Shown: positions 7,830 to 25,119, numbered from the stretch's first letter. The stretch is 25,119 nucleotides of DNA from an uncultured Clostridia bacterium (GCA_937976095.1 CALJSV010000153.1:1-25119); one strand, 5' to 3'. Numbers and translations are program-made. The notes: generated by a model not told the origin, from the letters alone.

Positions 7830-8816
7830 TTAATACTGCCTGTCAATATATGCCCATAAGGGCAGGATAAGGCGGCTATTTGTTAATTTATTATGATACT
7901 CAATAGGAGAACATACCTCATCCTCAAATGCTGTCTTATGGCTTATGTTGTATGCTCTAATGTACTTCTGAAGCTGAATTCTCAGATCATTGAAGGAAAT
8001 ACCTTCATGGATCAGAGGTATTAGAAATGATAGGCAGCCTTCTGTATATTGCTTTCTTAATTCGTCAATCATCGCCATGCTATCATCTGATTTAAGTATA
8101 TGTATTTTTACATCAAGTCCGTTATCTTGAGCTATTTTGCTAACTCTTGAGTTCAAGCTGCTTCTGGTTTGCTTAATGATTTTTAAATCATGGAAAAAGC
8201 AGAAGTACTTAACGTGCAAGCTTAGTGTTTGAGCCACCGGTATAGCTACAGCAGTTAATAAATCTTCAAAATTCTCAAATGATATATCGTGATACAGCCT
8301 TGTGCATGCTATTCTGCTTCTAAAATCAAATAAGGTATACTCATAAATGTTGCCTTGGGTTTGAAAATCCCCATAATAAGTTATCCAAAATATCCAGCAT
8401 TCTCCGCTGTTTAGTTCACTTATAGGAGGGAGCTGACTTGGGGGATTGTTTTCCTTCTTTTTTATAAATCTGACCCTGCTTTCTTTATTGGTAAGGTGGT
8501 GTCTTTTCATAACATTAAAGACAGCTGACTCACTTATGTTATATCCGATTTCTTCCAAAAGATATTTAATAGCCTTTGGTCCATAGCTGGGATATGCTTT
8601 CAATAGACTTAGCAATGCGTTTTCTATCTCATTGCTTGTTTTATTGACAGGAACAAAATCCTTCTTAACATCATCAAGACCTTCGATCCCCTGAGTTTTA
8701 TATCTTTTTAACCAACGATAATAAAGTGTCCTGGAAATGTTATATTTTCGGCAAGTTGTGCTTATGCCGTTTATTTGTCCTTCACTTATAATATTAAATT
8801 TAAGGTTTTTGTGCAT
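7830..8816 (-). CDS. Transposase-like protein: N-terminal HTH plus degenerate rve/integrase-core domain (IS481/IS3-like), probably domesticated
   Basis: The HTH segment is ISRTLYYRWLKRYKTQGIEGL. The core segment GECWIFWITYYG...LFDFRSRIACTRLY...YHDISFENF matches the integrase-core pattern, but the first catalytic Asp is replaced (W-I-T-Y rather than T-D-I-T). No inverted repeats are visible, and the gene abuts the oxidoreductase start. The start codon is uncertain (8816, 8828 or 8840). Confidence 0.45.
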   Translation of the reverse strand: MHKNLKFNIISEGQINGISTTCRKYNISRTLYYRWLKRYKTQGIEGLDDVKKDFVPVNKTSNEIENALLSLLKAYPSYGPKAIKYLLEEIGYNISESAVFNVMKRHHLTNKESRVRFIKKKENNPPSQLPPISELNSGECWIFWITYYGDFQTQGNIYEYTLFDFRSRIACTRLYHDISFENFEDLLTAVAIPVAQTLSLHVKYFCFFHDLKIIKQTRSSLNSRVSKIAQDNGLDVKIHILKSDDSMAMIDELRKQYTEGCLSFLIPLIHEGISFNDLRIQLQKYIRAYNISHKTAFEDEVCSPIEYHNKLTNSRLILPLWAYIDRQY

Positions 8817-8956
8817 AACAACCACCATTTTTACAATCAATTATTTTTGAGTGAGTAATATACTTTTTATTTTACCATCCCCAATGGTCTCCTTCAACAG
8901 TTAAAACTGTACCAAAGTATTTTAAATACTAATATCGAGCGCTGCTTGTAAAAAAA

Positions 8957-9065
8957 GTTACTTTGGATTTCTGTTTACAATCACTCTAGAGAAAGGTGTC
9001 AAGAATAGTCTGATTATTATGAGGCTACAGTATATTATGATATGTAAACACATAGGTAAAGTAAC
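8957..9065. repeat. Bipartite inverted repeat GTTACTTT-N7-TGTTTACA / TGTAAACA-N7-AAAGTAAC
   Basis: The left arm is at 8957-8979. The right arm at 9043-9065 is its reverse complement. The two 8-mers are separated by 7 nt in both arms. The pair sits upstream of the hypB promoter. Confidence 0.4.
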
Positions 9066-9094
9066 AACTCGAGAAAAACGCGTAAAATTCTTAA

Positions 9095-9123
9095 TTGTTG
9101 CGGCTTTTTTATCTTGCTATAAT
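9095..9123 (+). promoter_or_regulatory. Promoter for the hypB operon (TTGTTG-17-TGcTATAAT, extended -10)
   Basis: TATAAT lies at 9118-9123, preceded by TG. A -35-like TTGTTG lies 17 bp upstream. A second TATAAT is at 9130. Confidence 0.4.
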
Positions 9124-9153
9124 CAAAGTATAATCAGTTGCTGGAGGTCGAGT

Positions 9154-9819
9154 ATGAGTGAGTTAAAAGTTTTCACAATCAAAAAAAATATTCATGAAAA
9201 TAACGCTAAAGTTGCTCAAGCCACAAGAGAAGAATTAAAAAAGCAAGGTACATATCTTATTAACATCATGTCATCACCAGGTAGTGGAAAGACATCGACA
9301 CTTGTTAGTACAATCAAAGCATTAAAGGATGAGATTAAGATCGGTGTTATGGAAGCTGATATTGACTCGGATGTTGATGCAATAGCTGTTCAGACGGCAG
9401 GGGCAAAAGCAGTTCAAATGCACACAGGTGGGATGTGCCATTTAGACGCTACCATGACAAAGCAGGGTATTGATGAGTTAGGTGTAGAAGAATTGGACCT
9501 GGTTTTTCTGGAGAATATCGGAAACCTGATATGCCCGGCAGGCTATGATGTAGGAGCAATGAAAAATATAGCTATTTTAAGTGTTCCGGAAGGCGACGAT
9601 AAGCCTTTAAAATACCCTAAGATATTCGGGAAAGTAGATGTGCTGATCGTCAACAAAATCGATGTAATAGAGCATTTCGATTTTAGAATGGATTTGCTTG
9701 AGGAAAGAGTAAGAAAGCTGAACAAGGATATTACTATCTTTCCCATATCAGCAAAAACCGGTGAAGGTATGGATGAATGGTTAAATTGGATTAGAAAAGA
9801 AATAAAAACAAGGGGGTAG
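9154..9819 (+). CDS. hypB: Ni-metallochaperone GTPase HypB (G3E family)
   Basis: P-loop SSPGSGKTST. CH metal site GGMCHLDA. ENIGNLICPA and NKIDV motifs. RBS GGAGG lies 6 nt before ATG 9154. The longer ORF from 9019 would run through its own promoter. Confidence 0.8.
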   Translation: MSELKVFTIKKNIHENNAKVAQATREELKKQGTYLINIMSSPGSGKTSTLVSTIKALKDEIKIGVMEADIDSDVDAIAVQTAGAKAVQMHTGGMCHLDATMTKQGIDELGVEELDLVFLENIGNLICPAGYDVGAMKNIAILSVPEGDDKPLKYPKIFGKVDVLIVNKIDVIEHFDFRMDLLEERVRKLNKDITIFPISAKTGEGMDEWLNWIRKEIKTRG

Positions 9820-9824
9820 AAACA

Positions 9825-12599
9825 ATGCCCAAGAAACAAGAAAAAACAAACTTTAACAAGTCAAAGAGGTTTAACTTTGCTCTAAACTGGGCGGATGTAG
9901 ATGGTAGAGAGTATAGGCAAGAGATAGTGGACCTTGCAAACAAGATCGGAAGGACAAAAGCAGGCTCAAGCAGGGAGGCAATTCCCTTTGGTCCTGAATA
10001 TTATGCCCTTGCACCGATACTCAACGAATACCAAGCAAAAACAGCGATGCACTTGGAATTCCGTAAAAAGCTCAATGCAGAGGATGTTGCAAAAGCATCA
10101 GGAGAGCCATACGAAAAGGTAAAGGAAGCTCTGGACTATATTGCCTGGGCTGGAGTTGCCTTTGTAAATACAATAGCTGGAGTAGACGTGTATTGGCAGG
10201 ATATCTTTGTACCAGGCCACTTGGAAATGATAAATAACAACAAAGAGCTGGTTGCCAAGCACCCGGAGGTAGCAGAAGCCTTCTACTATTTTGGAAGCAA
10301 AAGAGGACCTATGGCTGCAGGCATAATGCCTATTGGTGCAGGACCAATGCGCGTACTGCCTATTGAAAGATCCATTGATGGAAACTCAAGAAAAGCTTCC
10401 TATGAAGAGCTGTCAAAGCACTTAAACGAAGCAAAAGTGTTCTCCGTATCTGATTGTTCCTGCAGGACTTCTCGTGAAGAAATGGGAGAAGGCTGCGGAC
10501 ACTTAAAGGAAAATATGTGTATTCAATTAGACCATGCTGCTGAATACTACATAAAAACAGGACGTGGAAGGAAGATCACTCGAGAAGAAGCCTTTGAGAT
10601 CATTAAAAGAGCAGAGGACAATGGCTTGATGCACTCTATTCCGAACTTGGATGAGCCGGGGCACACCCATGCTATTTGCAATTGCTGCGGATGTGGCTGT
10701 TATGCCATGAGATTAGCCAATGAATATGTAAATAATGATATTGTCAGGTCTAATTATAAGTCGGTTGTTGATGAATCTAAATGTGTAGCTTGCGGCGAGT
10801 GTGTGGATGTTTGTCCTACAAATGCATTAAGACTTGGACAGAAGCTATGCTCCAAAGCGCCTATTGATGAAAAAATGGTTAAGGCTACACCGAGAAATAA
10901 TGAGTGGAAGGAAGACAAATGGAACAGCGATTATAGAGTTAACAGGAAAAATACACTGGACTCAGGTACTGCTCCTTGTATTACCAACTGTCCCGCACAC
11001 ATTCCGGTACAGGGCTATATTAAGCTGGCTTCACAGGGTAAATATACAGAAGCCTTGGAATTGATTAAGAAGCATAATCCACTTCCAGCAGTATGCGGAC
11101 GTGTTTGCCCAAGACTGTGTGAGGAAGACTGTACACGTGGTGATATTGATGAAGCTGTAGCCGTTGATGATATCAAAAAGTTTATTGCAGAGCAGGATAT
11201 AAATAAGGATATTCGCTACATACCGAAGAAAAGACATGACTACAGTGACAAGAAGGTTGCCATTATCGGCGGAGGTCCTTCAGGGCTGACATGTGCTTAT
11301 GACTTAGCTATAGATGGTTATGATGTAACAGTATTTGAAAAAGAGAAAATGCTAGGGGGCATGCTGACATTTGGAATACCATCCTACAGGCTGGAAAAGG
11401 ATGTTATAGAAGCGGAAATAGCTATACTCAAGGAAATGGGAGTTAAGTTTGAGACCGGTGTGGAAGTCGGAAAGGATGTATCGATCCAAGGACTTAGAGA
11501 TAAAGGCTTTAATGCTTTCTATGTCGCTATCGGTGCGCAATCAGGAAGAAAGCTGGGATTAGAAGGGGAAACCGCTGCTGAAGTAATAAGCGGTGTAGAC
11601 TTCCTTCGAACAGTTAATTTGTCTGAACCAACCAACGTAAAGGGTAAAGTGATTGTCATTGGTGGAGGTAACGTTGCAATTGATGTTGCAAGATCTGCCG
11701 TAAGACTGGAAGGCGTAGTGCAAACAGATATTTTCTGTCTGGAAGCAAGAGAGACTATGCCTGCGCACCCTGAAGAAATAGAAGAGGCCTTGGCGGAAGA
11801 TGTGAATGTCAACACTTCATGGGGTCCGACGAGGATTATAGCAGAAAACGGTAAAGTAACAGGAGTAGAATTCAAGCGTTGCCTTTCTGTTTTTGATGCA
11901 GATGGCAGATTCAATCCAAAGTTTGATGAAGCAGATAAAAGGATTGTTGAATGTGATTATGTCTTGTTATCCGTAGGGCAAACCTACGACTATGGAAAGC
12001 TTCTGGAAGGTGAAGGTGTAAGGTTAACCAATAGGAATACAATTGAAGTGGATCCTGTGACTCTTCAAAGTTCAAAAGCAGACATTTTTGCCGGCGGAGA
12101 TGTTGCAAGTGGTCCAAAATTTGCCATAGATGCCATAGCGGCTGGTAAAGAAGCAGCAATTTCCATACACAGATTTGTACAAAGAGGTCAGTCCTTGGTA
12201 TTCGGTAGAGATACACACTCCTACAAAATGCTTGATAAGGAAAACCTGGGTGAAATACAAGGCTATGATGGTACAGTAAGACAAGGGACAAATCATGTGG
12301 ATGGCAAGGTATCAAAAACAACCTTTAAAGACTTAAGAGGTATCTTAACAGAAGAACAGATTAAGAAGGAAACAGCAAGATGTCTCGGCTGTGGTGCCAC
12401 TAAAACAGATGAGTACCTATGTGTTGGATGCGGAGCATGCACACTCAAGTGTAAATTTGAAGCAATAAAGCTTGAGAGGGTTAATGATGCAAAAGGTTAC
12501 AGAATTGAAGACCTGCCAAAGGTGGTAATTAAAAAAGCATTAGCCAGAAAAGTCAAAATAATGGCAAACAAAATAAATCCTTTTACAAAAGCAAGATAG
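9825..12599 (+). CDS. Multi-cluster Fe-S flavoprotein with three parts: an unknown Cys/His-rich N-terminal domain, a 4Fe-4S ferredoxin motif, and a GltD/NfnB/SudA-like FAD/NAD(P)H oxidoreductase with a C-terminal Cys cluster
   Basis: CVACGECVDVCP (ferredoxin). CITNCPAH...PAVCGRVCPRLCEEDC (GltD-type N-terminal clusters). VAIIGGGPSGLTCAY and VIVIGGGNVAIDVA (two dinucleotide folds). C-terminal CLGCGATKTDEYLCVGCGACTLKC. The N-terminal ~330 aa contain SDCSCRTSREEMGEGCGH and HTHAICNCCGCGC. Translationally coupled to hypB (5-bp gap, RBS GGGGG). Confidence 0.7.
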   Translation: MPKKQEKTNFNKSKRFNFALNWADVDGREYRQEIVDLANKIGRTKAGSSREAIPFGPEYYALAPILNEYQAKTAMHLEFRKKLNAEDVAKASGEPYEKVKEALDYIAWAGVAFVNTIAGVDVYWQDIFVPGHLEMINNNKELVAKHPEVAEAFYYFGSKRGPMAAGIMPIGAGPMRVLPIERSIDGNSRKASYEELSKHLNEAKVFSVSDCSCRTSREEMGEGCGHLKENMCIQLDHAAEYYIKTGRGRKITREEAFEIIKRAEDNGLMHSIPNLDEPGHTHAICNCCGCGCYAMRLANEYVNNDIVRSNYKSVVDESKCVACGECVDVCPTNALRLGQKLCSKAPIDEKMVKATPRNNEWKEDKWNSDYRVNRKNTLDSGTAPCITNCPAHIPVQGYIKLASQGKYTEALELIKKHNPLPAVCGRVCPRLCEEDCTRGDIDEAVAVDDIKKFIAEQDINKDIRYIPKKRHDYSDKKVAIIGGGPSGLTCAYDLAIDGYDVTVFEKEKMLGGMLTFGIPSYRLEKDVIEAEIAILKEMGVKFETGVEVGKDVSIQGLRDKGFNAFYVAIGAQSGRKLGLEGETAAEVISGVDFLRTVNLSEPTNVKGKVIVIGGGNVAIDVARSAVRLEGVVQTDIFCLEARETMPAHPEEIEEALAEDVNVNTSWGPTRIIAENGKVTGVEFKRCLSVFDADGRFNPKFDEADKRIVECDYVLLSVGQTYDYGKLLEGEGVRLTNRNTIEVDPVTLQSSKADIFAGGDVASGPKFAIDAIAAGKEAAISIHRFVQRGQSLVFGRDTHSYKMLDKENLGEIQGYDGTVRQGTNHVDGKVSKTTFKDLRGILTEEQIKKETARCLGCGATKTDEYLCVGCGACTLKCKFEAIKLERVNDAKGYRIEDLPKVVIKKALARKVKIMANKINPFTKAR

Positions 12600-12630
12600 A
12601 TTATATCTGTAGAAATTGAGGTATAGTGTA

Positions 12631-12972
12631 ATGCACGAACTAGGTATCGTTTATGAAGTCATCAAAATAGTCGATGGATTTGCAAAGGAAAATAATCTGA
12701 CAACAGTAGATAAAATTGTATTGGAGGTTGGACAATTATCTCAGGCAATTCCAAGATTTATTGAAGAGTGTTATCCTGCGGCAGTTAGTGAAACCGCATA
12801 TGAAAACACTAAGCTGGAGATCATTGTGCTTCCAGCCAAAGCAAAATGCAAGGCTTGCAATGAAGTATATAATATTATAGAGCACAGGAAAATCTGTCCT
12901 GAATGCCAGGGAGATGAATATAAATTAATATCAGGACAGGAATTCAATATTAAAGAAATTGTAGCATTTTAG
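12631..12972 (+). CDS. hypA: Ni-metallochaperone HypA
   Basis: N-terminal MHE (Ni site) followed by LGIVYEVIKIV. Zinc-ribbon CKACNEV...CPECQG. RBS GAGGT lies 8 nt before ATG 12631. Confidence 0.8.
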   Translation: MHELGIVYEVIKIVDGFAKENNLTTVDKIVLEVGQLSQAIPRFIEECYPAAVSETAYENTKLEIIVLPAKAKCKACNEVYNIIEHRKICPECQGDEYKLISGQEFNIKEIVAF

Positions 12973-15729: not shown

Positions 15730-15987
15730 ATGAGGTCTTTAAAAACTAGACCGGTAAATGACCAAAGTAATCAGAAGGGGCATGGTCAGTACGAGAAACA
15801 CCAGAGATGTGAATTCTGTAATGTGCCTATATTTCGAAACCCTTGCTGTGACGTACGCAGCAGTGGTGCTTTTAAGGGTAAAGGAAAAGTGCTTTGCAAT
15901 AAGTGTGCAGCACTACTAGAAAAGATACCTACAGAGCAGGCAATCCAAGCTCTAAATAACGCCTGTGAAACCTATCCAAAGGAGTAA
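15730..15987 (+). CDS. Small Cys-rich hypothetical protein (possible zinc ribbon)
   Basis: 85 aa with CEFC...CC...CNKC. RBS GAAGGGAATGAG. Confidence 0.35.
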   Translation: MRSLKTRPVNDQSNQKGHGQYEKHQRCEFCNVPIFRNPCCDVRSSGAFKGKGKVLCNKCAALLEKIPTEQAIQALNNACETYPKE

Positions 15988-16107: not shown

Positions 16108-16734
16108 ATGGATAAAGAAGTATTACAAAATAGCGGCCAACTTGAACAATTAACTGCAGCTGAAATTTGGAAGAAGCTATATGGTAAGGAGCTTGACTGC
16201 AAGAAGCATATCATAGAGTACATTGAAATAACCAAGGTGCTAAAAAAGGAAAATGCAAGTCAGGATCAGATAAAGGATACGTATAATTATATTTATGAGC
16301 ATATAGATGGGCTGAAGGATACAATAAAACCAAATACAATGATGTTTTTAAAGAATAGCTTAAAATCACAGCTTGGAAAATATGTTAAAGAAAAGGATCC
16401 AAAGCTTTTAAATCACTTTGTTGAGTTTTTTAAGGAGGCATACCCTGAAAACAGCAGAAGAAAGGATTTTACATGGGTTCTAATGGATGTAAACAGCATA
16501 TCAGAGGAACAGCTCTGGACTACATTGACCCATATTAATAGAGAGTGCCTAAATAACAGCCTTAATCTGAATCCCAGTCAAAAAAAAGACATAATAGAAG
16601 TGATTGAAAAGGCTGTAGGTAAGAACAATATTAAGTTTATTAATAAGGTTAGGAGCCTAAAAAAATTAAACGAGGAATTAGATATTTCAATTGTTAGTAT
16701 TGGTGAAGTACTCAAGGTAAGGCGTAATCGATAA
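16108..16734 (+). CDS. Hypothetical protein
   Basis: 208-aa ORF with RBS AAAGGAG 7 nt before the ATG. No recognisable motif. Confidence 0.45.
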   Translation: MDKEVLQNSGQLEQLTAAEIWKKLYGKELDCKKHIIEYIEITKVLKKENASQDQIKDTYNYIYEHIDGLKDTIKPNTMMFLKNSLKSQLGKYVKEKDPKLLNHFVEFFKEAYPENSRRKDFTWVLMDVNSISEEQLWTTLTHINRECLNNSLNLNPSQKKDIIEVIEKAVGKNNIKFINKVRSLKKLNEELDISIVSIGEVLKVRRNR

Positions 16735-16994
16735 GCAAGACAAATTCATTTATTTAGGTTTTTAAAAGAAAGGGTAAATGAATGTAAAGACTGCTTTTGA
16801 CAATAAAAGCATGATGTGCTAATGAATGTGGAAGTTTTGGGCAACGACCTTATATTTGGGTTTCCAAACGGGGGAGCTTTTATCGGTTCGCCCTCAATGA
16901 AGATTAAGGGCTTAGCCATATCCGGTGCATAAAGCACGAGGCTGTGCTTAGTCTGAGTGATTAGATAAATAAGAGTTCGAATATTGATACATAG

Positions 16995-17022
16995 GAAAGC
17001 CCTTCAAATAGGGGCTTTTCGC
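16995..17022 (+). terminator. Terminator-like hairpin AAAGCCC...GGGGCTTTTC
   Basis: GC-rich stem followed by a T-run. It lies ~260 nt downstream of the preceding stop. Confidence 0.35.
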
Positions 17023-17169: not shown

Positions 17170-17199
17170 TTGTATGAATTTCCTAATTATGCTATAATT
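17170..17199 (+). promoter_or_regulatory. Promoter TTGTAT-18-TATAAT for the nfeD/flotillin/AAA+ operon
   Basis: TTGTAT at 17170-17175 and TATAAT at 17194-17199. RBS AAGGAGAAG follows, then ATG 17240. Confidence 0.4.
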
Positions 17200-17239: not shown

Positions 17240-17878
17240 ATGAACGAGCTTTTTACTACAGCTGTTACGGGAGTAAATATTATTCCTACCACTTTATTGG
17301 GCTTGGTTATTTTGTATTGGGTGTTTGTAATAGTTGGTGCTCTTGATTTGTCTTCCTTGGATATTGATATAGATGGGGATGCGGATTTGGACTCTATATC
17401 AGGTCCGTTGCATAGCATAATGCTGCTATTCAAAATAGGTCAACTTCCTATAGGGTTTGTTATCAGTGTTATCATTTTAGTATTTTGGGTATTATCAATG
17501 GCTATGCACTTACTGCCCTTTAAGACAGGGGGAATCCTTGCCGGCATTATCATGCTTCCCAGCTTCGTTTTAAGTATATTTATTACAAAAATTATCTTAA
17601 GCCCCTTTGAGAAAGCATTTAGGAGTAGGGTCAAGTCTGAGCTTGAGGAAGAAATCATTGAGGGCAGACGGGGAGTACTTCTATGCGACCTTACCTTTGG
17701 TCGTTTGGGGCAGGTTGAGATAAAAAGGAATGGCAGCCCAATAATTATCAATGTAAAGATGATAAAGGAAGAAGAATTACAAAAGGGAAATGAAGTTCTG
17801 ATCCTAAAAAAGGATGAAGAAAAAGACTTTTACTTAATTACTAAACTTGAAGGAGTGATAAACAAATGGCTTTCTTAA
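17240..17878 (+). CDS. NfeD-like membrane protein (YuaF/YqiJ family): TM helices plus C-terminal OB-fold
   Basis: Three or four TM segments. An acidic loop DIDIDGDADLDS. A C-terminal beta-rich segment EGRRGVLLCDLTFGRLGQVEIKRNGSPIIINVKMI typical of the NfeD OB-fold. It sits immediately upstream of a flotillin gene and overlaps it by 13 nt, as in yuaF-floT / yqiJ-yqiK. Confidence 0.7.
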   Translation: MNELFTTAVTGVNIIPTTLLGLVILYWVFVIVGALDLSSLDIDIDGDADLDSISGPLHSIMLLFKIGQLPIGFVISVIILVFWVLSMAMHLLPFKTGGILAGIIMLPSFVLSIFITKIILSPFEKAFRSRVKSELEEEIIEGRRGVLLCDLTFGRLGQVEIKRNGSPIIINVKMIKEEELQKGNEVLILKKDEEKDFYLITKLEGVINKWLS

Positions 17879-20001
17879 CACAAGTACCTTTCTTAACACA
17901 GGTAACATTAGTTACTGCAGTAGCTTTGGTTGTAATCGTTTTTGGACTAATTGCTTTAATATCCAAGTTTTACAAAAAAGTAGAACAGAGTAAGGTAATA
18001 GTACGAAATGGTGTTGGAGGACAGATCGTCTCATTTGGAGGAATGCTGGTTATACCTATTTTACATAGGGCAGAAATAATGGATGTTTCGGTAAAAAGAG
18101 TTGAAATATCAAGAGAGGGTAAGGATGGGCTGATCTGTAAGGATAACATGAGGGCAGACATAAGAGTTGCTTTCTTTGTCAGGGTTAACCAAACTAGGGA
18201 GGATGTGCTGAAGGTTGCTCAATCCCTGGGATGTCAAAAGGCTTCAGATCCAGGAACACTAATGGAATTCTTTGATGCAAAGTTTTCAGAAGCATTAAAA
18301 ACTGTAGGCAAGAAATTTGATTTCGTACAGCTATATACAGAAAGAGAAAAATTCAAAAGTGAAATTCTTCAGATTATAGGTACTGACTTAAATGGATATA
18401 TTCTTGAAGATGCAGCCATTGATTATTTGGAGCAGACTGATATAAATAAGCTAAACAGCAATAATATTCTTGATGCCGAGGGTATCAAAAAAATTACGGA
18501 GCTAACCTCTCATCAGTTGATTCTTGCAAATCAGATTGAGCGAAACAAGGAAAAAACTATTAAGCAGCAGGATGTGGCAGCTAGGGAGGCTATTCTTGAG
18601 CTTGAGAAACAGAATCAAGAAGCAGAAGCCCGTCAGCAAAGAGAAATAGCTATTATTAGAGCCAGAGAAAAAGCAGAGACTGATAAAGTCTCACAGGAAG
18701 AGCGCTTAAAGGCGGAGATGGCTCGCATTAAGACGGATGAGGATATTGCTATTGCAGAAGAAAACAAGCAAAGACAGATTGTTGTAGCAACAAAGTCTAA
18801 AGAAAGTACAGAAGTAGTAGAGACAGAAAGAGTTGATAAGAAGAGACTTTTGGAGAAGGTAGACAAAGAAAAGCTGGTAGCTCTTGCGGAGATCGATAAA
18901 GAGAAAACCCTTGAGGAAGAGAAGAAAAACATTCAGACAGTTATTCGTGAGCGTGTGGCTGTTGAAAAAGATGTAGTAATTGAAGAAGAGAAAATAAAAG
19001 ATACAAAGGTAATTGCTGAAGCTGAACGTCAAAAGCAAGCAGCTTTAAAAAAGGCTCAAGAGCAAGCAGAGTCTAATTTGATCGTAGAGGTTCAAAATGC
19101 CGAAGCGGCAAAGCAAGTAGCCGAAAGAGCTGCACAGCAAAGAGTTATTGAAGCTGAAGCTAAGCTGCAATCTTCAGAAAAGGAAGCTGAGGCTATCAAA
19201 ATACTTGCTGATGCTCAGATAGTGCAGGCAGCCACAAGTGGATTGGCAGAAGCCCGCGTTATAGAGACAAAGGCGTCAGCTATGGAAAAGGAAGGCGGCT
19301 CGAAGGCAAGAGTAATGGAGGCAACAGCGGAGGCAGAAGCTAAAGCAATCGAGATAAAAGCACTGGCAGAAGCAAAGGGCGAAGAGGCAAAGGTTATTGT
19401 AAGAGAAAAATCCGGAACTGTTGAGGTTGATATTATGTCTAAAAAATATCATGCCGAAGCAGAAGGGATTGCGAAAAAAGCTACCAGCATGAAGGCACTG
19501 GATGAAGCAGGCAGAGGTCACGAGGAGTTTAAGCTTAAGCTTGATAAAGAGAAGGAAATTGAGCTTGCTCAAATAAATATTCAAAAGGATATAGCAGAAG
19601 CACAAGCAGCAGTTATAAGTGAAGCCTTGAAGTCAGCATCTATTGATATCGTTGGCGGAGAGACAATGTTCTTTGACAAAATCGTTGGTGCTATTACCCA
19701 AGGTAAGTCCGTTGACCGTGTTGTTAAAAACAGCGAGGTGCTAAGTGATATTAAGAACACTTTTATCACAGGTGATGGAGATTATTTTAGATCTCAGTTA
19801 GAGAGACTGACTTCAAAATTCAATCTGACTTCAGAGGACTTAAAAAATCTATCAATTTCAGCTGCTATTCACAAAGCAATGAAGTTTGCGGATTCATCCG
19901 AGAAGACAGCGCTTATGAAGCTACTGGAAACTGCAGAAAAGGCGGGCTTAGCAAATTTGCCGGCTAACCTTCTTGGAAAACAAATTACTAGCAATGAGTA
20001 A
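17866..20001 (+). CDS. floT: Flotillin-like SPFH/band-7 protein (FloT/YqiK family), unusually long
   Basis: N-terminal TM helix followed by KKVEQSKVIVRNGVGG. SPFH domain. Roughly 300 aa of E/A/K-rich coiled coil. 711 aa in total. Confidence 0.8.
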   Translation: MAFLTQVPFLTQVTLVTAVALVVIVFGLIALISKFYKKVEQSKVIVRNGVGGQIVSFGGMLVIPILHRAEIMDVSVKRVEISREGKDGLICKDNMRADIRVAFFVRVNQTREDVLKVAQSLGCQKASDPGTLMEFFDAKFSEALKTVGKKFDFVQLYTEREKFKSEILQIIGTDLNGYILEDAAIDYLEQTDINKLNSNNILDAEGIKKITELTSHQLILANQIERNKEKTIKQQDVAAREAILELEKQNQEAEARQQREIAIIRAREKAETDKVSQEERLKAEMARIKTDEDIAIAEENKQRQIVVATKSKESTEVVETERVDKKRLLEKVDKEKLVALAEIDKEKTLEEEKKNIQTVIRERVAVEKDVVIEEEKIKDTKVIAEAERQKQAALKKAQEQAESNLIVEVQNAEAAKQVAERAAQQRVIEAEAKLQSSEKEAEAIKILADAQIVQAATSGLAEARVIETKASAMEKEGGSKARVMEATAEAEAKAIEIKALAEAKGEEAKVIVREKSGTVEVDIMSKKYHAEAEGIAKKATSMKALDEAGRGHEEFKLKLDKEKEIELAQINIQKDIAEAQAAVISEALKSASIDIVGGETMFFDKIVGAITQGKSVDRVVKNSEVLSDIKNTFITGDGDYFRSQLERLTSKFNLTSEDLKNLSISAAIHKAMKFADSSEKTALMKLLETAEKAGLANLPANLLGKQITSNE

Positions 20002-20018
20002 ATGAGGTGTAGTGAGCT

Positions 20019-23000
20019 GTGGGTGAACTAAAAACAACTGAACAAGGCGGACAAAATCCAGCCGAAGGTATTGAAAATGGCACATATGAATTAATAAAGA
20101 GCAGACTAGGCAAAATAGGCAGCGACCTGAAGGAAAAACTCGATAAATTAAATATTTCCAGAAGAAGCGTGTTTGGTTCAATTGAGACAACCCTGCTCGG
20201 CAGTGAAAAGATTATTACTGAAAACAATTGCGTCCCACGAGACATGGCTCCCGTGGGAGCTTTGTTTATCTTCGGTTACAACGTATATATTGGACTGAAA
20301 TCCTCTGTTGAGCTTTCTGACGTCTTTTCCATCTATGAATACAAGGGTGGATCATTCCACAAACAATCCTTAGAGCTTATTAACAATGATCAATTTTTAA
20401 ACGACTTCAAAGAATTATATAAGTACTACAAGAATACTTTCTTTGCAAAGTTTACAAATGTAGGACCTTATCTTTATATGGTATTTCAGACCGGGAAGAG
20501 TCCCTTTGATATAAAAGCCTTCAAATGGCTTATGAAGGATGGCAAGCTTTCCTACGTAGACAACAGGAGTGAGCATGAGGTAAGACTGAAGGTTCAAAGT
20601 GAGCTTGATTGGGTTAGAGCTAAGAGAGAGGATCACTGTGAGGGCAGGCATCCGCATATATCAATTAGAGATAAGGTCTTTGTAGAAACCTTAGGTGGAG
20701 ACCTTACTATAAAGGTAGAGAATAACACGGATACCGGTAAAGGCATTTACTCTGAGACTGTGGAAGATATGGATCAGACCCTTGATGATGCTGAAATATA
20801 TTATGCGTCAGTAGGAAATCTAATACTTTTGAAAATTCTTCCTTACAGGGAAAAAGAGTACCGCTACATAATATTTAATGAAAAGCTGCAGATGGTTGTT
20901 CGAGTAGATGCTATAAAGGATTCTTGCGTGCTGTTGCCGGATAACCATGGACTTATATTCCCTAAGGGCTATTATTTGCAAAGCGGTGAACATAAGCTTT
21001 TTGAAGTGCCCAGTGAAGGCTTTGTTTTTGTTCAGCGTATAGAAGCTCCTAATGGAGAGGATTTTCAGTACATTTTCTACAATATGGAAACGGGATTATA
21101 CCTGATATATACATACAATATAATTGAGCAATCATTGGAAATACCGATAATCTGTGGTGGCTACTCACATTTTAACAATGGTGAGATGGTGATTTTTAAG
21201 GGGGAAGACGAGCCTCGTAAGAACCATACCCTGCAAATATGGCAGACTCCATATGTGGGAGAAGGCTACACGGTTGAGAATAAAAGCGACTCAGTTCTGT
21301 ATAAAATAGGCAATAAAGAAGTTGTTCATTGTATGGCAGACTGCAAGGTAGTATATAACCTTATTCAAAAAGGGGAGAGCTATACAAGCATATACCTGGA
21401 CATCGTAAAAGACACTGAAAGAATTATGGACTCTTATTATTGGCTGGACAAAGCTGAGGCCTTTAACCTGAAAGCAGTGCTAAAAAGCGTAAAAGAGGCT
21501 GCTACTTCAGCAGTTGCTGAGTTTGAAAAGGTAACAAGAATAAGGTGTTCTACAGAGAAGCAAATCAAAGAAGTAGATGAAAAGGCTCAAGTGCTGCTGA
21601 AGAATGCTGAGTACGGTACATTTGACAGTATTCAAGGTTATGTGCAGATTCTGGCAGATTTAAGGTCTTTAAGAGGAGAGATAGCTTCTCTCAAGGCCTT
21701 GCGCTACACTAATTTGCCGCTGGTTGAGTCACTGGAAGAGAAGGTCAAAGAAAAAAATGAAAGGCTAACCCAAAGATGTACTGAGTTTCTTCTGGTTCCT
21801 GAAGGACTCAGGCCTTACTCACAGCAGGTTGACAATCAGCAGAGCCAGATTCCTTCTATTACTAAGACCTCTTCGGGAAAAGAGCTGGAGAATGAGATGG
21901 CAAAATCCTCTCAGGACTTAGAGCTGCTAATTGATATTGTAAGCAATTTTAATATAGAAGACCCGACAAAAACAACAGAGATAATTGAAAATATATCTGC
22001 CATATTTTCTCTCCTAAACCAGGCTAAAGCAAAGCTGAAAAACCGTATGGTAGAGCTTTCCGAAAAAGAGGGAATTGCACAGTTTCACTCCCAGATGAAG
22101 CTGCTAGACCAAGCTGCTGTTAATTATCTTGAAGTTGCAGATGGCATGGAAAAATGCGAATTATATCTGAACAAGATAATGGTACAGATTGAGGAGCTGG
22201 AAGGCAGATTTGCAGATTTTGAAGACTTCATTGTAAAGCTTAATGAAAAGCGGGAAGAGCTTTATAATGCTTTTGAAGCAAAAAAACAGATGATTTTAGA
22301 GAAACGGAACAAAAAGCTCACTGCTCTTTTTGGCACATCTGAGAGGATACTAACTGGAATTATCAGCCGACTTCAGGGCTTTAATACTATTAATGAGATT
22401 AACGGCTACCTTGCATCAGATATCATGATCGATAAGGTAAGAGATATCATTGATCAGCTTAAGGCATTGGGAGATAGTGTGAAGGCTGATGAAATTGAAG
22501 GAAGGCTAAAGATAATAAAAGAGGAGGCTATCCGTCAGCTAAAAGACAAACAGGAGTTATTTGTTCATGGGAAAAACGTAATTAAGCTCGGCAGGCATTA
22601 CTTTTCCTATAATACTCAGCAGCTTGAGCTGTCAATGGTGCAAAAGGACGGAGAACTATATTTTCATATTACTGGAACTGATTTCTGGGAAAAAGTATCA
22701 TCAGATAGTATGGCTAAGTTCCACTACCTGTGGGACCAGGAAGTACTGTCAGAATCTAAGTATATTTATCGTGCCGAGTACCTTGCATATAAGATATTTG
22801 AGGCAGCTTTAAGTAAGGAGGTAGTATCCCTTGATACGCTTTATTCATACTCTGAGGAACAGCTATTGGAATACATCCGCAAGTTTATGGAGCCACGTTA
22901 TCAAGAGGGATATACAAAAGGTGTCCATGACGCAGATTGTCACAAACTACTAAAAGCGCTTTTGAATTTGCACATGAATATTGACCTGTTAACCTACAGT

Positions 23001-24968
23001 CCAAAATCCAGAGCCATTGCAAAGCTATACTGGCAGTGCATAGCCGGCTCAGAAATAAAGGATAAGTTTAGCAGACGCTTAAGGGAATTGGCAAAAATAA
23101 GCATGTACTTCAAGACAGAGCCTGGATTGGGGGATTATATCCCTACCATCGAAACAGAAATGAACAGTGCTTTCAATAATTACAAATTCGTTGATAAAGG
23201 CTTTGTTTATGAAGCTTCAGAATATCTATGCAGGGAGCTAATGCGTGGCAGCTCATTTATAGCAAGTCTTGAAGCAGATGAAGCCAAAAGCAAGTTTTTG
23301 CAACATCTTAAAGCCAATAAAGCAGAAAGCCTTTTTGCTGAGTCTCTTAAGGCCTTTAATGAAGACTTGGAAGGAGCATATTATCTTGTACGGGAGTGGC
23401 TTACTGCGTTCTTTAAAGAAACAGGCTTAAATGAGGGCATTGACGTAATGGATGAAGTCATTACTTTGTTAATTGTTGATAGTAGCAAAGTCGACATCAG
23501 CAGACAAAAAGTTATTAACATGAAAACAAGGGTGATGATCACCGAATTAAGTGGAAATCATCCAAGCATAAAAGGAGGAGAGTATACTCTTTCATATACA
23601 GAGTTCATGAAAAAACTAAAGGAATATGATAAAACTGTTGTATGTGATTTCATTGAATTTCAAGCTTTGAAGAAGGAGCTTTCACAGAGATTTAGAGATG
23701 AACTCCGCTTGGAGGAGTTTAAGCCTAATGTGTTATCCTCCTTTGTAAGAAATCGATTAATAGATAAGGTGTATCTGCCGTTGATTGGTGATAACCTTGC
23801 AAAACAAATAGGTACAGCAGGCGAAGATAAACGAACAGACCTGATGGGCATGCTTCTATTGATATCTCCACCAGGCTATGGAAAGACAACCCTTGTAGAG
23901 TATATTGCAAATCGTCTTGGCATTTTTCTTATCAAGATCAACGGACCTGCTATTGGAAACGATGTAACTTCACTGGATCCTGCTATGGCTCCAAATGCAG
24001 GTGCAAGAGAAGAGCTGAGAAAGCTCAACCTAGCCTTTAAAATGGGCAACAATGTTATGATTTATCTGGATGATATACAGCACTGCAGCCCGGAGTTTCT
24101 GCAAAAGTTTATTCCTCTGTGTGACGGACAAAGGAAAATTGAAGGTGTTTATAATGGGATGGGGCAATCCTATGACCTTAGAGGGAAGAAGCTGGCTGTT
24201 GTCATGGCAGGGAATCCATACACAGAGAGCGGTGAAAAGTTCCAGATTCCTGACATGCTTGCAAATAGAGCAGATGTCTATAATCTTGGAGACATGCTCC
24301 ACGAAAACGAAAATGCATTTAAGCTGAGCTATATCGAGAATTCTTTGACCTCTAACCCTATTCTTAATAAGCTTGCATCCAGAAGTCAGAAAGATATTTA
24401 CACTATGATTGACATTGCAGAGAATGGGGAAAGAGAGGGCTTGGATTTTGAAAGCCAATACTCTGTTGAAGAGATAAATGAGTTTGTGGCTGTTATTCAA
24501 AAGCTTATGAAGGTGCGCGATATAGTTCTAAAGATCAATATGGAATATATCTATTCTGCTGCACAAGCTGATGAATACAGAAAAGAGCCACCCTTTAAGC
24601 TTCAAGGCTCCTACAGGAATATGAACAAAATATCAGAAAGAATAGTTCCATTAATGAATGATGAAGAGCTGATGCAAATGGTTGCGAACGCCTATGAAAA
24701 TGACTCGCAAACCTTAACACAGGGAGCAGAAGGCAATATGCTGAAATGGAAGGATATTGCAGGACATATCAATGAACAAGAAGCCTTGAGGTGGAAGGAA
24801 ATAAGAGATATTTTCTTAAAAAACAAGCTGGCGAGGGATGATAGCAAAATAGGTCAGGCAATTATTAAGCTTGGTGATTTAAATGAACAGCTAGGGGTTA
24901 TGACAAGCGTACTGACAAAAGGTGTAGAGAGGATGTGTGGTCACACCCCAGCTCCGCCAAATAAGTAA
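20019..24968 (+). CDS. Giant (1649 aa) protein: unknown N-terminal ~480-aa domain, long coiled-coil/helical middle region, C-terminal single AAA+ ATPase of the MoxR/McrB (helix-2-insert) clade
   Basis: GTG start with RBS GAGGTG, 17 bp after the flotillin stop. Walker A LISPPGYGKTT. Walker-B region MIYLDDIQHCSPEFLQ (compare MoxR hhhhDEINRA). AVVMAGNPYTESGEKFQIPDMLANRADV matches the MoxR ATQNP...LPEAQLDRF segment. Confidence 0.7.
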   Translation: MGELKTTEQGGQNPAEGIENGTYELIKSRLGKIGSDLKEKLDKLNISRRSVFGSIETTLLGSEKIITENNCVPRDMAPVGALFIFGYNVYIGLKSSVELSDVFSIYEYKGGSFHKQSLELINNDQFLNDFKELYKYYKNTFFAKFTNVGPYLYMVFQTGKSPFDIKAFKWLMKDGKLSYVDNRSEHEVRLKVQSELDWVRAKREDHCEGRHPHISIRDKVFVETLGGDLTIKVENNTDTGKGIYSETVEDMDQTLDDAEIYYASVGNLILLKILPYREKEYRYIIFNEKLQMVVRVDAIKDSCVLLPDNHGLIFPKGYYLQSGEHKLFEVPSEGFVFVQRIEAPNGEDFQYIFYNMETGLYLIYTYNIIEQSLEIPIICGGYSHFNNGEMVIFKGEDEPRKNHTLQIWQTPYVGEGYTVENKSDSVLYKIGNKEVVHCMADCKVVYNLIQKGESYTSIYLDIVKDTERIMDSYYWLDKAEAFNLKAVLKSVKEAATSAVAEFEKVTRIRCSTEKQIKEVDEKAQVLLKNAEYGTFDSIQGYVQILADLRSLRGEIASLKALRYTNLPLVESLEEKVKEKNERLTQRCTEFLLVPEGLRPYSQQVDNQQSQIPSITKTSSGKELENEMAKSSQDLELLIDIVSNFNIEDPTKTTEIIENISAIFSLLNQAKAKLKNRMVELSEKEGIAQFHSQMKLLDQAAVNYLEVADGMEKCELYLNKIMVQIEELEGRFADFEDFIVKLNEKREELYNAFEAKKQMILEKRNKKLTALFGTSERILTGIISRLQGFNTINEINGYLASDIMIDKVRDIIDQLKALGDSVKADEIEGRLKIIKEEAIRQLKDKQELFVHGKNVIKLGRHYFSYNTQQLELSMVQKDGELYFHITGTDFWEKVSSDSMAKFHYLWDQEVLSESKYIYRAEYLAYKIFEAALSKEVVSLDTLYSYSEEQLLEYIRKFMEPRYQEGYTKGVHDADCHKLLKALLNLHMNIDLLTYSPKSRAIAKLYWQCIAGSEIKDKFSRRLRELAKISMYFKTEPGLGDYIPTIETEMNSAFNNYKFVDKGFVYEASEYLCRELMRGSSFIASLEADEAKSKFLQHLKANKAESLFAESLKAFNEDLEGAYYLVREWLTAFFKETGLNEGIDVMDEVITLLIVDSSKVDISRQKVINMKTRVMITELSGNHPSIKGGEYTLSYTEFMKKLKEYDKTVVCDFIEFQALKKELSQRFRDELRLEEFKPNVLSSFVRNRLIDKVYLPLIGDNLAKQIGTAGEDKRTDLMGMLLLISPPGYGKTTLVEYIANRLGIFLIKINGPAIGNDVTSLDPAMAPNAGAREELRKLNLAFKMGNNVMIYLDDIQHCSPEFLQKFIPLCDGQRKIEGVYNGMGQSYDLRGKKLAVVMAGNPYTESGEKFQIPDMLANRADVYNLGDMLHENENAFKLSYIENSLTSNPILNKLASRSQKDIYTMIDIAENGEREGLDFESQYSVEEINEFVAVIQKLMKVRDIVLKINMEYIYSAAQADEYRKEPPFKLQGSYRNMNKISERIVPLMNDEELMQMVANAYENDSQTLTQGAEGNMLKWKDIAGHINEQEALRWKEIRDIFLKNKLARDDSKIGQAIIKLGDLNEQLGVMTSVLTKGVERMCGHTPAPPNK

Positions 24969-24986
24969 CCAAATTTTGATACATAG

Positions 24987-25023
24987 CCAAAGACCGTTGA
25001 AATCAGCGGTTTTTGGTATTTTT
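24987..25023 (+). terminator. Rho-independent terminator of the giant-gene operon
   Basis: CCAAAGACCGTT gaaatc AGCGGTTTTTGG forms a ~12-bp stem with G-U pairs and is followed by TATTTTT. Confidence 0.5.
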
Positions 25024-25024
25024 A

Positions 25025-25119
25025 GTGCGCCCGGCATGGGCGCAATCTAACGGGTGAGAGTCCCGAACACGCCCTAGTAGTGGGAAGTGTATAGCTTAAG
25101 GCAAGGGTGTCCTTGGCGA
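25025..25119 (+). mobile_element. Putative 5' end of a group II intron (domain I; class C-like insertion after a terminator), truncated by the window end
   Basis: Begins GTGCGCCCGGCATGGGCG, matching the group II 5' consensus GUGYG followed by a GC hairpin. It sits immediately 3' of a terminator stem-loop plus T-tract, the classic class IIC target. Further local hairpins (CGGGTGAGAGTCCCG) are present. Confidence 0.4.

Follow-up and report, generated by a model that had tools for sequence, protein, structure and literature searches.

The window analysed here, a stretch of 25,119 nucleotides from an uncultured Clostridia bacterium, carries a genuine, compact three-gene operon in which a YqiJ/YuaF-type membrane protein, a long flotillin and a very large AAA+ ATPase (hereafter the giant) are encoded in that order on one strand, and the three genes stay together as a unit in at least ten phyla. 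Our best reading, for which we rate the chances as about even, is that the giant uses ATP to remodel flotillin/PspA assemblies at the membrane.

The three co-directional ORFs lie at 17240-17878, 17866-20001 and 20019-24968, exactly as the sequence-only reading had placed them, and a strong hairpin was found where that reading had put a terminator (24987). Genes 1 and 2 share 13 nt, and genes 2 and 3 are separated by a gap of 17 nt; together with the terminator hairpins on either side, this arrangement bears out the proposal that the three genes form one tight unit. An AAGGAG site lies 5' of gene 1, and a ribosome-binding site, GAGGTG, lies 8 nt 5' of the GTG with which the giant gene starts. 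The features, in window coordinates, are as follows:

16994-17020, + strand: terminator-like hairpin (11-bp stem with 5 GC pairs, T tract; -15.1 kcal/mol)
17170-17198, + strand: putative sigma-A promoter (-35 TTGTAT, 17-nt spacer, extended -10 TGcTATAAT; consensus match only)
17240-17878, + strand: gene 1, YqiJ/YuaF-type (NfeD-related) membrane protein of 212 aa (family profile, hydrophobic segments, alignment)
17866-20001, + strand: gene 2, YqiK-like long flotillin of 711 aa (Band_7 match, BLASTP to YqiK, hydrophobic segment)
20019-24968, + strand: gene 3, giant soluble ATPase of 1649 aa (database names "DNA repair ATPase" and "AAA family ATPase")
20124-21440, + strand: DUF3686 domain of the giant, aa 36-474 (Pfam PF12458, E 2.3e-178)
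21441-22568, + strand: long alpha-helical stalk, aa ~475-850 (AF2 helices and DUF7902)
22569-23750, + strand: conserved alpha/beta middle region, aa ~851-1244 (AF2 pLDDT 83-95, invariant columns)
23751-24563, + strand: single AAA+ module, aa ~1245-1515 (structurally of MoxR, CbbQ/NorQ, type)
24564-24965, + strand: C-terminal helical extension, aa ~1516-1649 (conserved to ~aa 1600, with a variable tail)
24986-25017, + strand: strong intrinsic-terminator-like hairpin at the operon 3' end (14-bp stem, T tract; -21.1 kcal/mol)

The terminator-like hairpin at 16994-17020 closes the upstream unit and sets the 5' boundary of the operon. Two upstream ORFs (16108-16734 and 15730-15987) were considered as members of the module and rejected, as they have no homologues beside the triad elsewhere. 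Nothing above noise came out of Rfam scans, which covered the leader, the 3' end and the window in full.

The gene 1 protein has three hydrophobic segments, the first of which (TM1) is followed by an acidic DxDxD loop, and a beta-rich C-terminal domain, a block that the alignment shows to be conserved in the family. The family profile aligned with E. coli YqiJ over 176 columns (hhalign probability 97.3%, E 2.3e-11), and Pfam YqiJ_N matched 22 of the 39 family members, the window protein by itself being sub-threshold (E 0.064); the NfeD OB-fold (PF01957) gave weak matches in 3 of the 39, with a best E of 0.005. The flotillin runs from an N-terminal membrane anchor (a single hydrophobic segment, aa 4-39) through an SPFH/Band_7 domain (aa 39-181, nt 17980-18408; Pfam Band_7 E 6.9e-10) and an E/A/K-rich coiled-coil region to a conserved C-terminal region. 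It matches E. coli YqiK with 29% identity over 478 aa (BLASTP 2e-43) and shares 43-44% identity with the flotillins that accompany the giant in Marinobacter and Deinococcus; being closer to one another than to YqiK, the giant-linked proteins of Clostridia, Gammaproteobacteria and Deinococcus form a dedicated subfamily. Orthology to B. subtilis FloT was rejected (18.6 bits with the NCBIfam FloT equivalog, whose cut-off is 700), and the protein belongs to a flotillin-like paralogue group distinct from FloT. The first two genes resemble the yqiJ-yqiK operon of E. coli and yuaF-floT(yuaG) of B. subtilis, in which the gene for a YqiJ-type protein with three TM segments precedes that for an SPFH/flotillin protein anchored at its N terminus, but the window flotillin is ~160 aa longer and of a separate subfamily, and in E. 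coli no giant ATPase lies downstream, with sibD/ibsD coming after yqiK.

The giant has more than 4985 homologues, and a query with its aa 1-1200 returned 925 clusters at 50% identity (E<=1e-10); the family is present in at least 583 species-level genomes in more than ten phyla. The sequence-only reading had drawn the protein as 480 aa of unknown N-terminal sequence, a coiled-coil middle and a C-terminal MoxR-type domain, and profile searches and structure prediction upheld the last of these and corrected the other two. The N-terminal part is DUF3686, which in the AF2 model consists of an N-terminal helix and then a roughly six-bladed beta-propeller (aa ~58-410, pLDDT mostly 85-92), for which Foldseek returned generic 6- and 7-bladed matches only (CyRPA, pseudaminidase, prolyl oligopeptidase; E 1e-5 to 1e-3). 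The middle is divided between a stalk, whose modelled helices span aa 426-845 (pLDDT 55-83) and include DUF7902 (aa 596-677, nt 21804-22049; Pfam PF25472, E 3.3e-25), and the alpha/beta region, which had no match in the Pfam search and is made up of a small beta unit, a helical domain and a pre-AAA beta/alpha segment, with the invariant motifs HxTGTDF and PRYxEGYxKGVHDxD. No hydrophobic or TM segment was found in the giant, and both of its partner proteins are membrane-anchored.

The AAA+ module carries a Walker A motif, SPPGYGKTT (nt 23865-23891), a Walker B motif, YLDDIQH (nt 24063-24083), a sensor-1 residue (N1399) and an arginine (R1417). All 80 of 80 homologues keep GYGKT, DD, N1399 and R1417 unchanged, and identity of the core across phyla stands at 77%; from these residues the module is predicted to be catalytically intact, and the giant looks like an active ATPase under strong constraint. 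Its nearest structures are CbbQ and NorQ, in support of the MoxR-clade call made from sequence, while Pfam gave 22.6 bits for AAA_5 (cut-off 22), 30.7 bits for the generic AAA family PF00004 and no match for AAA_3. Identity as a McrB-type GTPase was rejected, since neither a McrB-like fold as best match nor a McrC nuclease partner was found. MoxR-family ATPases normally pair with a VWA/MIDAS partner. CbbQ, NorQ and GvpN are stand-alone proteins of ~260-350 aa with such a partner (CbbO, NorD), whereas the module of the giant is the C-terminal sixth of 1649 aa, has only 14-18% sequence identity to them and comes with no VWA partner, the domain being absent from all three operon proteins by Pfam.

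The database name of the giant, which follows the Pfam description of DUF3686 and NCBI product names, implies a DNA repair ATPase whose linkage to flotillin is either incidental or a membrane tether for DNA transactions. Apart from the name, this reading can draw on weak RuvB matches in NCBIfam, Pfam and the PDB and on a LexA-like HTH and S24 regulator beside the triad in Bacteroidota. However, the RuvB similarity covers only ~45 residues around the P-loop and scores 21-22 bits against cut-offs of 282-299, a PDB sequence search with the giant gave matches at the level of the P-loop only, RuvB is structurally more remote than CbbQ and NorQ, and Pfam and Foldseek detected no DNA-binding domain. 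Furthermore, the invariable partners are membrane proteins, the recurrent neighbours are of the PspA envelope-stress type and not repair genes, and the name finds no support in the literature searched. A role in DNA repair thus has little support and appears very improbable.

Synteny was assessed in 61 loci/genomes with at least 3.5 kb of sequence upstream of the giant, drawn from at least eight phyla. Flotillin lies directly upstream of the giant on the same strand in 58 of these and a YqiJ-like gene is present in 55, so that the proposed link between the giant and the flotillin/NfeD pair holds across genomes; the remaining 3 loci have no flotillin near the giant. For 29 of these 58 the distance between flotillin and giant lies between -11 and +130 nt, with overlapping ORFs in some (-11 and -8 nt), and the triad also occurs in Clostridium intestinale, Marinobacter, Pseudoxanthomonas, Deinococcus and the plasmid pQBR103. 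In many Bacteroidota and Verrucomicrobiota loci the gap is 0.5-1.7 kb, and the idea of a conserved fourth gene in it was rejected because the ORFs found there are heterogeneous (DUF3784, DMP19-like, or no assignment). Pairwise-identity correlations among the three genes, in the style of a mirror tree, gave r of 0.56-0.69, which is consistent with co-inheritance but has no control and was given no weight.

These data bear directly on the alternative that the giant is functionally independent of the NfeD-flotillin pair, with its own transcription, and stands beside it by chance. On its side are a weak terminator-like hairpin within the giant ORF (20246-20261) and promoter-like hexamers inside the region, which occur at chance frequency. 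The hairpin has a 6-bp stem and a poor T tract and lies in conserved coding sequence; the region holds 12 sites of this kind, compared with 6.0 +/- 2.8 in shuffles, and the hairpin is accordingly at about chance level. Against this stand the conserved linkage in many phyla, the overlap of flotillin and giant ORFs in some genomes and, in the window, the short gap with its ribosome-binding site. We consider chance adjacency scarcely credible.

The coupling of flotillin to the giant, which the sequence-only reading had implied to be novel, has been described before. Ravi et al. (2024; mSystems 9:e00847-23, PMC11237479) reported an operon of YqiJ/YuaF, Band-7/flotillin and a "beta-propeller + coiled-coil + AAA-ATPase" protein, with and without PspA, its full form being CesT/Tir-PspA-YqiJ/YuaF-Band-7/flotillin-giant (example ANH61663.1 from Dokdonia donghaensis), and in that computational study the linkage was placed in the PspA membrane-stress network and read in terms of membrane dynamics, an independent result that agrees with the reading preferred here. 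The window has the same three core genes, in the same order, on one strand and with the same domain architectures, but no adjoining CesT/Tir or PspA; because no ORF for either is found in the 25-kb window, it corresponds to the published "abbreviated" three-gene form. The Bacteroidota loci in our sample have exactly the published layout, including the divergent HTH and protease regulator. Since the linkage was already published, the window adds no new principle; what is added here are the DUF3686 and DUF7902 names, the MoxR (CbbQ/NorQ) placement, quantitative synteny and a structure model. Beyond that paper, our literature searches found no mention of DUF3686 or PF12458 and nothing else on the giant family, including searches on YqiK with YqiJ and ATPase and on MoxR with SPFH.

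In Bacteroidota and Gammaproteobacteria, a CesT/YjfI-like gene and PspA often stand in front of the triad. CesT_Tir_1 and PspA_IM30 lie directly upstream in 15-17 Bacteroidota loci, DUF2170/YjfI and PspA adjoin the triad in Marinobacter and Pseudoxanthomonas, and PspA is present in pQBR103. Additionally, TelA lies downstream of the triad in Pseudoxanthomonas, and C. intestinale has LytTR and LiaF-like genes upstream of it. Across 80 neighbourhoods, PspA, CesT and HTH-S24 were the only recurrent extra families, and no VWA partner recurred. Some versions in proteobacteria are reported to include a phospholipase D gene; in Marinobacter, the gene that comes after the triad (539 aa) had no Pfam match.

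Two functions had been proposed from the sequence, membrane remodelling and a membrane-anchored conflict or defence system. The first fits because PspA, CesT/YjfI, LiaF-like and TelA genes are the neighbours. The second, in which flotillin and YqiJ would be the membrane effector or sensor and the giant a McrB/MoxR-like NTPase switch against phage, found little support: in PADLOC-DB v2 the giant gave only P-loop noise, with IetA (E 0.0013, 29 P-loop residues) and mad8 (E 0.0073), and genes 1 and 2 matched nothing, homologues were absent from 50,697 phage records and, of 72,556 plasmid records, no more than 13 had one, most of these being megaplasmids or chromids, and uniform identities of 44-67% between phyla over 1600 aa, together with an unchanged gene order, would be unusual for fast-evolving defence genes. 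In addition, the other genes around the operon in the window are metabolic or housekeeping, with no nuclease, toxin or McrC-like effector among them. We regard a defence role as improbable.

In the remodelling reading, the YqiJ-like protein would anchor and organise flotillin, which would oligomerise into a cage or patch on the cytoplasmic side of the membrane. The giant would assemble through its AAA+ ring, like the CbbQ and NorQ hexamers, its stalks and propeller heads would reach the membrane lattice, and ATP would be spent to assemble, reshape or dismantle a lattice of flotillin and/or ESCRT-III-like PspA in membrane stress or repair, in analogy to Vps4 acting on ESCRT-III. Flotillin is near-obligatory beside the giant, whereas YqiJK pairs occur in E. 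coli without it, which suggests that the ATPase is a flotillin-dependent accessory. We infer contact of the giant with flotillin, YqiJ or PspA from gene linkage alone. Against the remodelling reading are the 3 loci without a nearby flotillin, the lack of a PspA gene in the window and the lack of a VWA/MIDAS partner in the operon or recurring beside it, and the substrate of the giant could be something other than a flotillin or PspA lattice.

One such alternative is that the flotillin/YqiJ cage serves as a platform only, and that the giant is a chaperone or assembly factor acting on other membrane complexes held there by unfolding, extraction, cofactor insertion or activation, comparable to NorQ and CbbQ with their clients or to HflK/C-FtsH in membrane protein quality control. 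The nearest structures, CbbQ and NorQ, do remodel specific client enzymes, AAA+ machines enclosed in SPFH cages are an established theme, and the beta-propeller could serve as a client-binding head. However, no candidate client gene or VWA adaptor recurs, the only recurrent extras relevant here being PspA and CesT-like genes, and by sequence reading no aromatic pore-loop motif is obvious in the AAA+ module. We consider a client-directed role rather unlikely.

Functional coupling of an SPFH membrane scaffold to an AAA+ ATPase is known from HflK/C-FtsH, the standard example, and from prohibitin and the m-AAA protease, so the supposition that this combination is unprecedented finds no support. 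The likeness to HflK/C-FtsH is an analogy only, since the giant has neither a protease domain nor a TM anchor and its AAA+ module is MoxR-like and not of the classical FtsH type. As in Vps4-ESCRT-III and PspF/PspA, an AAA+ ATPase is here linked genomically, in many genomes, to a protein of the PspA/ESCRT-III family, but compared with Vps4 the giant lacks an MIT domain, belongs to another AAA+ clade and has flotillin, not PspA, as its invariable partner.

A more specific form of the remodelling reading, which we advance tentatively, is that the triad is a dedicated ATP-powered builder or dismantler of flotillin (and PspA/ESCRT-III-like) lattices, with a hexameric MoxR-type ring setting six propeller-tipped helical arms on a specialised flotillin cage. 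If true, bacteria would possess in the triad a counterpart of Vps4-ESCRT-III or HflK/C-FtsH, and bacterial flotillins would gain a defined biochemical cycle that depends on energy. The giant family is widespread, and databases currently mislabel it as "DNA repair ATPase". What bacterial flotillins do is still under debate, and in a subfamily tied almost invariably to a large conserved ATPase, and frequently to PspA, the triad may offer a concrete route to an energy-dependent role of flotillin scaffolds in membrane stress and repair.

In agreement with the sequence-only reading, which had described a three-gene operon, the coordinates of the ORFs and of the bracketing hairpins delimit an operon-like unit with the following features.

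17240-17878, plus strand: gene 1, ORF of 212 aa
17866-20001, plus strand: gene 2, ORF of 711 aa
20019-24968, plus strand: gene 3 (the giant), ORF of 1649 aa with a GTG start
16994-17020: terminator-like hairpin on the 5' side of the unit, -15.1 kcal/mol
24986-25017: terminator-like hairpin on the 3' side of the unit, -21.1 kcal/mol
17170-17198, 5' of the unit: putative sigma-A-type promoter, a good match (TTGTAT-17 nt-TGcTATAAT)

There is a 13-nt overlap between genes 1 and 2 and a gap of 17 nt between genes 2 and 3, within which a GAGGTG ribosome-binding site is placed 8 nt 5' of the GTG. A hairpin scan of the region returned 12 sites, compared with 6.0 +/- 2.8 in shuffles, and the two hairpins that enclose the three-gene unit were the top two terminator-like candidates; a weak hairpin within the giant ORF (20246-20261) has a poor T tract and a quality no better than chance.

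Searched alone, gene 1 gave no Pfam match above threshold. Alignment of 39 syntenic gene 1 homologues against E. coli YqiJ gave a whole-length match (hhalign probability 97.3%, E 2.3e-11), with Pfam YqiJ_N matched in 22 of the 39 family members and weak evidence, in 3 of the 39, for an NfeD OB-fold domain. Three hydrophobic segments were identified in the protein, along with an acidic DxDxD loop and, at the C-terminal end, a conserved block rich in beta structure. The loop, a strongly acidic DxDxDxD repeat between hydrophobic segments 1 and 2 (window 17350-17400, gene 1 aa ~37-53; columns ~60-110 of A4, the alignment of YqiJ-like proteins), varies from about 10 to >40 residues across homologues and looks like a cation-binding element or a low-complexity spacer. 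Gene 2 encodes an SPFH/Band_7 protein (E 6.9e-10) with a single N-terminal hydrophobic anchor and 29% identity to E. coli YqiK (E 2e-43). Flotillins of a distant triad clade (Marinobacter, Deinococcus) share 43-44% identity with the window flotillin and are thus much nearer to it than E. coli YqiK; the giant-linked flotillins therefore constitute a dedicated subfamily. FloT orthology was ruled out for gene 2, which scored 18.6 bits where the cut-off is 700.

The giant ORF, described in the sequence-only reading as of unknown function, is no orphan: aa 36-474 correspond to Pfam DUF3686 (E 2e-178), aa 596-677 match Pfam DUF7902, and >4985 homologues exist, most of them named 'DNA repair ATPase', with 925 clusters (50% identity) recovered at E<=1e-10 when aa 1-1200 served as query. 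AlphaFold2 models built from a 60-sequence alignment (Clostridia, Gammaproteobacteria and Deinococcus) had a mean pLDDT of 81.9 over aa 1-1200 and of 82.7 over aa 1151-1649, and predict the following elements.

First element: N-terminal helix
aa ~58-410: beta-propeller of about six four-stranded blades, counted from the DSSP string
aa ~426-845: long helical stalk
aa ~851-1160: small beta unit and well-ordered helical domain
C-terminal end: single AAA+ module, then a helical C-terminal extension

The propeller matched generic 6- and 7-bladed propellers only. For the AAA+ module, Foldseek TM-scores were 0.55-0.64 against CbbQ and NorQ versus 0.32-0.36 against RuvB, and the model contains a beta-hairpin preceding the sensor-1 strand and an insertion past strand 2; because of these scores and elements the modelled module is placed nearest to the MoxR-family ATPases (CbbQ/NorQ), so that the MoxR-clade part of the earlier MoxR/McrB-type assignment stands and the McrB-type part finds no specific support. 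That the giant is a DNA repair ATPase is highly improbable, the database names and a RuvB similarity at the level of the P-loop being the sole basis for that reading. Walker A (SPPGYGKTT), Walker B (DDIQH), sensor-1 N1399 and R1417 are invariant in 80/80 homologues, the AAA+ core has a mean identity of 77% across phyla, and no hydrophobic segment was found in the giant. It is a soluble protein whose MoxR-type ring module is catalytically intact, and its partners are membrane-anchored. MoxR ATPases normally have a VWA partner; the lack of one here is the feature that fits least with any MoxR-style mechanism.

A locus scan in which each species was represented by one genome recovered at least 583 loci encoding a relative. 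The best 80 of these (44-67% identity over ~1600 aa), from Clostridia, Halanaerobiales, Bacteroidota, Planctomycetota, Verrucomicrobiota, Desulfobacterota, Omnitrophota, Kiritimatiellota and Chitinispirillaceae, formed the synteny set, in which ORFs were called and searched with iterated profiles of window genes 1 and 2. Where at least 3.5 kb of upstream sequence was available (61 loci), flotillin was found in 58 and the YqiJ-like gene in 55, always upstream of the giant and on the same strand; the linkage, which the sequence-only reading would have given up had synteny been lost elsewhere, therefore holds. In 29 of these 58 loci the gap from flotillin to giant falls between -11 and +130 nt; wider gaps, found chiefly in Bacteroidota and Verrucomicrobiota, contain heterogeneous small ORFs. 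Additionally, the triad is kept in the distant clade of Marinobacter, Pseudoxanthomonas, Deinococcus and the P. fluorescens plasmid pQBR103. Conserved strongly and as a block, the triad is a genuine operon with clear limits. E. coli yqiJK has no such giant ATPase, so the dependence looks one-sided, with the giant needing flotillin and not the reverse.

Clustering of all neighbouring ORFs across the 80 loci yielded just three further families that recur, each of them in Bacteroidota: CesT_Tir_1 (PF22550; 15 loci), PspA_IM30 (PF04012; 17 loci, directly upstream of the YqiJ-like gene in 16) and a divergent regulator (15 loci), as follows.

At about 0.8-3.8 kb within each locus, minus strand: HTH_3 + Peptidase_S24 regulator (LexA or phage-repressor-like) at homologous loci L009, L015, L022, L028, L033, L034, L044, L046, L047, L051, L055, L059, L061, L072 and L075

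This regulator suggests induction of the extended operon by autocleavage, and could explain why the annotation has a 'DNA repair' flavour. PspA linkage extends over several phyla, with, among Gammaproteobacteria, a DUF2170(YjfI)-PspA pair adjoining the triad in Marinobacter and Pseudoxanthomonas and PspA beside it in pQBR103. Marinobacter and pQBR103 also have DUF1190 and a glutathionylspermidine-synthase gene, and pQBR103 has DUF350 as well. On the same strand 3' of the giant lie TelA (PF05816) and a 234-aa protein in Pseudoxanthomonas (L084 14322-16123) and, in Marinobacter (L082 14301-15920), a 539-aa protein without a Pfam match, possibly the phospholipase-D-like gene to which Ravi et al. 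refer. In Clostridium intestinale (L001 3990-5157), LytTR-domain and LiaF-TM/LiaF-like genes lie directly upstream of the triad, an envelope-stress-type pairing seen at this one Firmicute locus only. The environmental megaplasmid pQBR103 (L086, NC_009444.1 85-98 kb) carries the whole extended module in the order PspA, rhomboid, DUF2491, DUF350, DUF1190, glutathionylspermidine synthase and then the triad, which indicates that the module can travel on very large plasmids.

The triad's neighbours in the window are unrelated housekeeping and metabolic genes (DEAD-box helicase, HypA, CobW-like GTPase, large Fe-S flavoprotein, radical SAM enzymes and hydrolases), and the ORFs directly upstream were not conserved beside the triad elsewhere. 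The sequence-only reading had also entertained a defence system. This is improbable because a PADLOC scan was negative, the giant family is absent from phage records and almost absent from plasmids (13/72,556 plasmid records, rare overall), its conservation is very strong and uniform, and its neighbours in the window are housekeeping genes.

Elsewhere in the window, a CobW/HypB-like GTPase, a 924-aa Fe-S/flavin oxidoreductase (Fer4 + Fer4_20 + Pyr_redox_2) and HypA follow in succession (9019-12972), a nickel-metallochaperone context with no hydrogenase or urease visible within the window. A minus-strand ORF (7830-8840) with HTH_28, HTH_32, HTH_23 and HTH_29, typical of IS630/Tc1-type transposase N-termini, lies beside the gene of an amine-oxidase-like flavoprotein and could be what is left of a mobile element. 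Beyond the terminator of the operon, the contig's final 100 bases (25020-25119) are strikingly GC-rich and self-complementary (gcgcccggcatgggcgc...) against a background of ~38% GC; Rfam gave no significant match to these bases, and the contig end may truncate the element.

The membrane-related nature proposed for the operon is broadly upheld. In the model that we consider about evenly balanced, the giant is an ATP-driven remodeller on a flotillin/YqiJ-like membrane assembly: the YqiJ-like protein and flotillin would build a cage or patch on the cytoplasmic membrane face, and the giant, oligomerised via its AAA+ ring, would reach the flotillin lattice by its stalks and propellers and spend ATP on building, reshaping or taking apart assemblies of flotillin and/or PspA in membrane stress. 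A reading in which flotillin is a platform only and the ATPase acts on other client complexes is rather unlikely.

The system has already been described as a CesT/Tir-PspA dyad combined with a 3-TM YqiJ/YuaF protein, a Band-7/flotillin and a protein of beta-propeller, coiled-coil and AAA-ATPase parts, for which 'related abbreviated operons' without PspA 'are more widely distributed' (Ravi et al., 2024; mSystems 9:e00847-23, PMC11237479). The gene string tabulated there for Dokdonia donghaensis (ANH61663.1) is identical to that recovered here in Bacteroidota, and the window triad is an instance of the abbreviated form. Literature searches found no experimental work on the giant family; the triad is not new, being a further member of a module already described by computation. 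To this description our analysis adds the identification of the giant protein with Pfam DUF3686/DUF7902, the placement of its ATPase as MoxR (CbbQ/NorQ)-type, quantitative synteny, the recognition of a dedicated flotillin subfamily, and evidence of a lack of support for 'DNA repair ATPase' as a database name. The module makes the function of flotillin and PspA accessible to testing.
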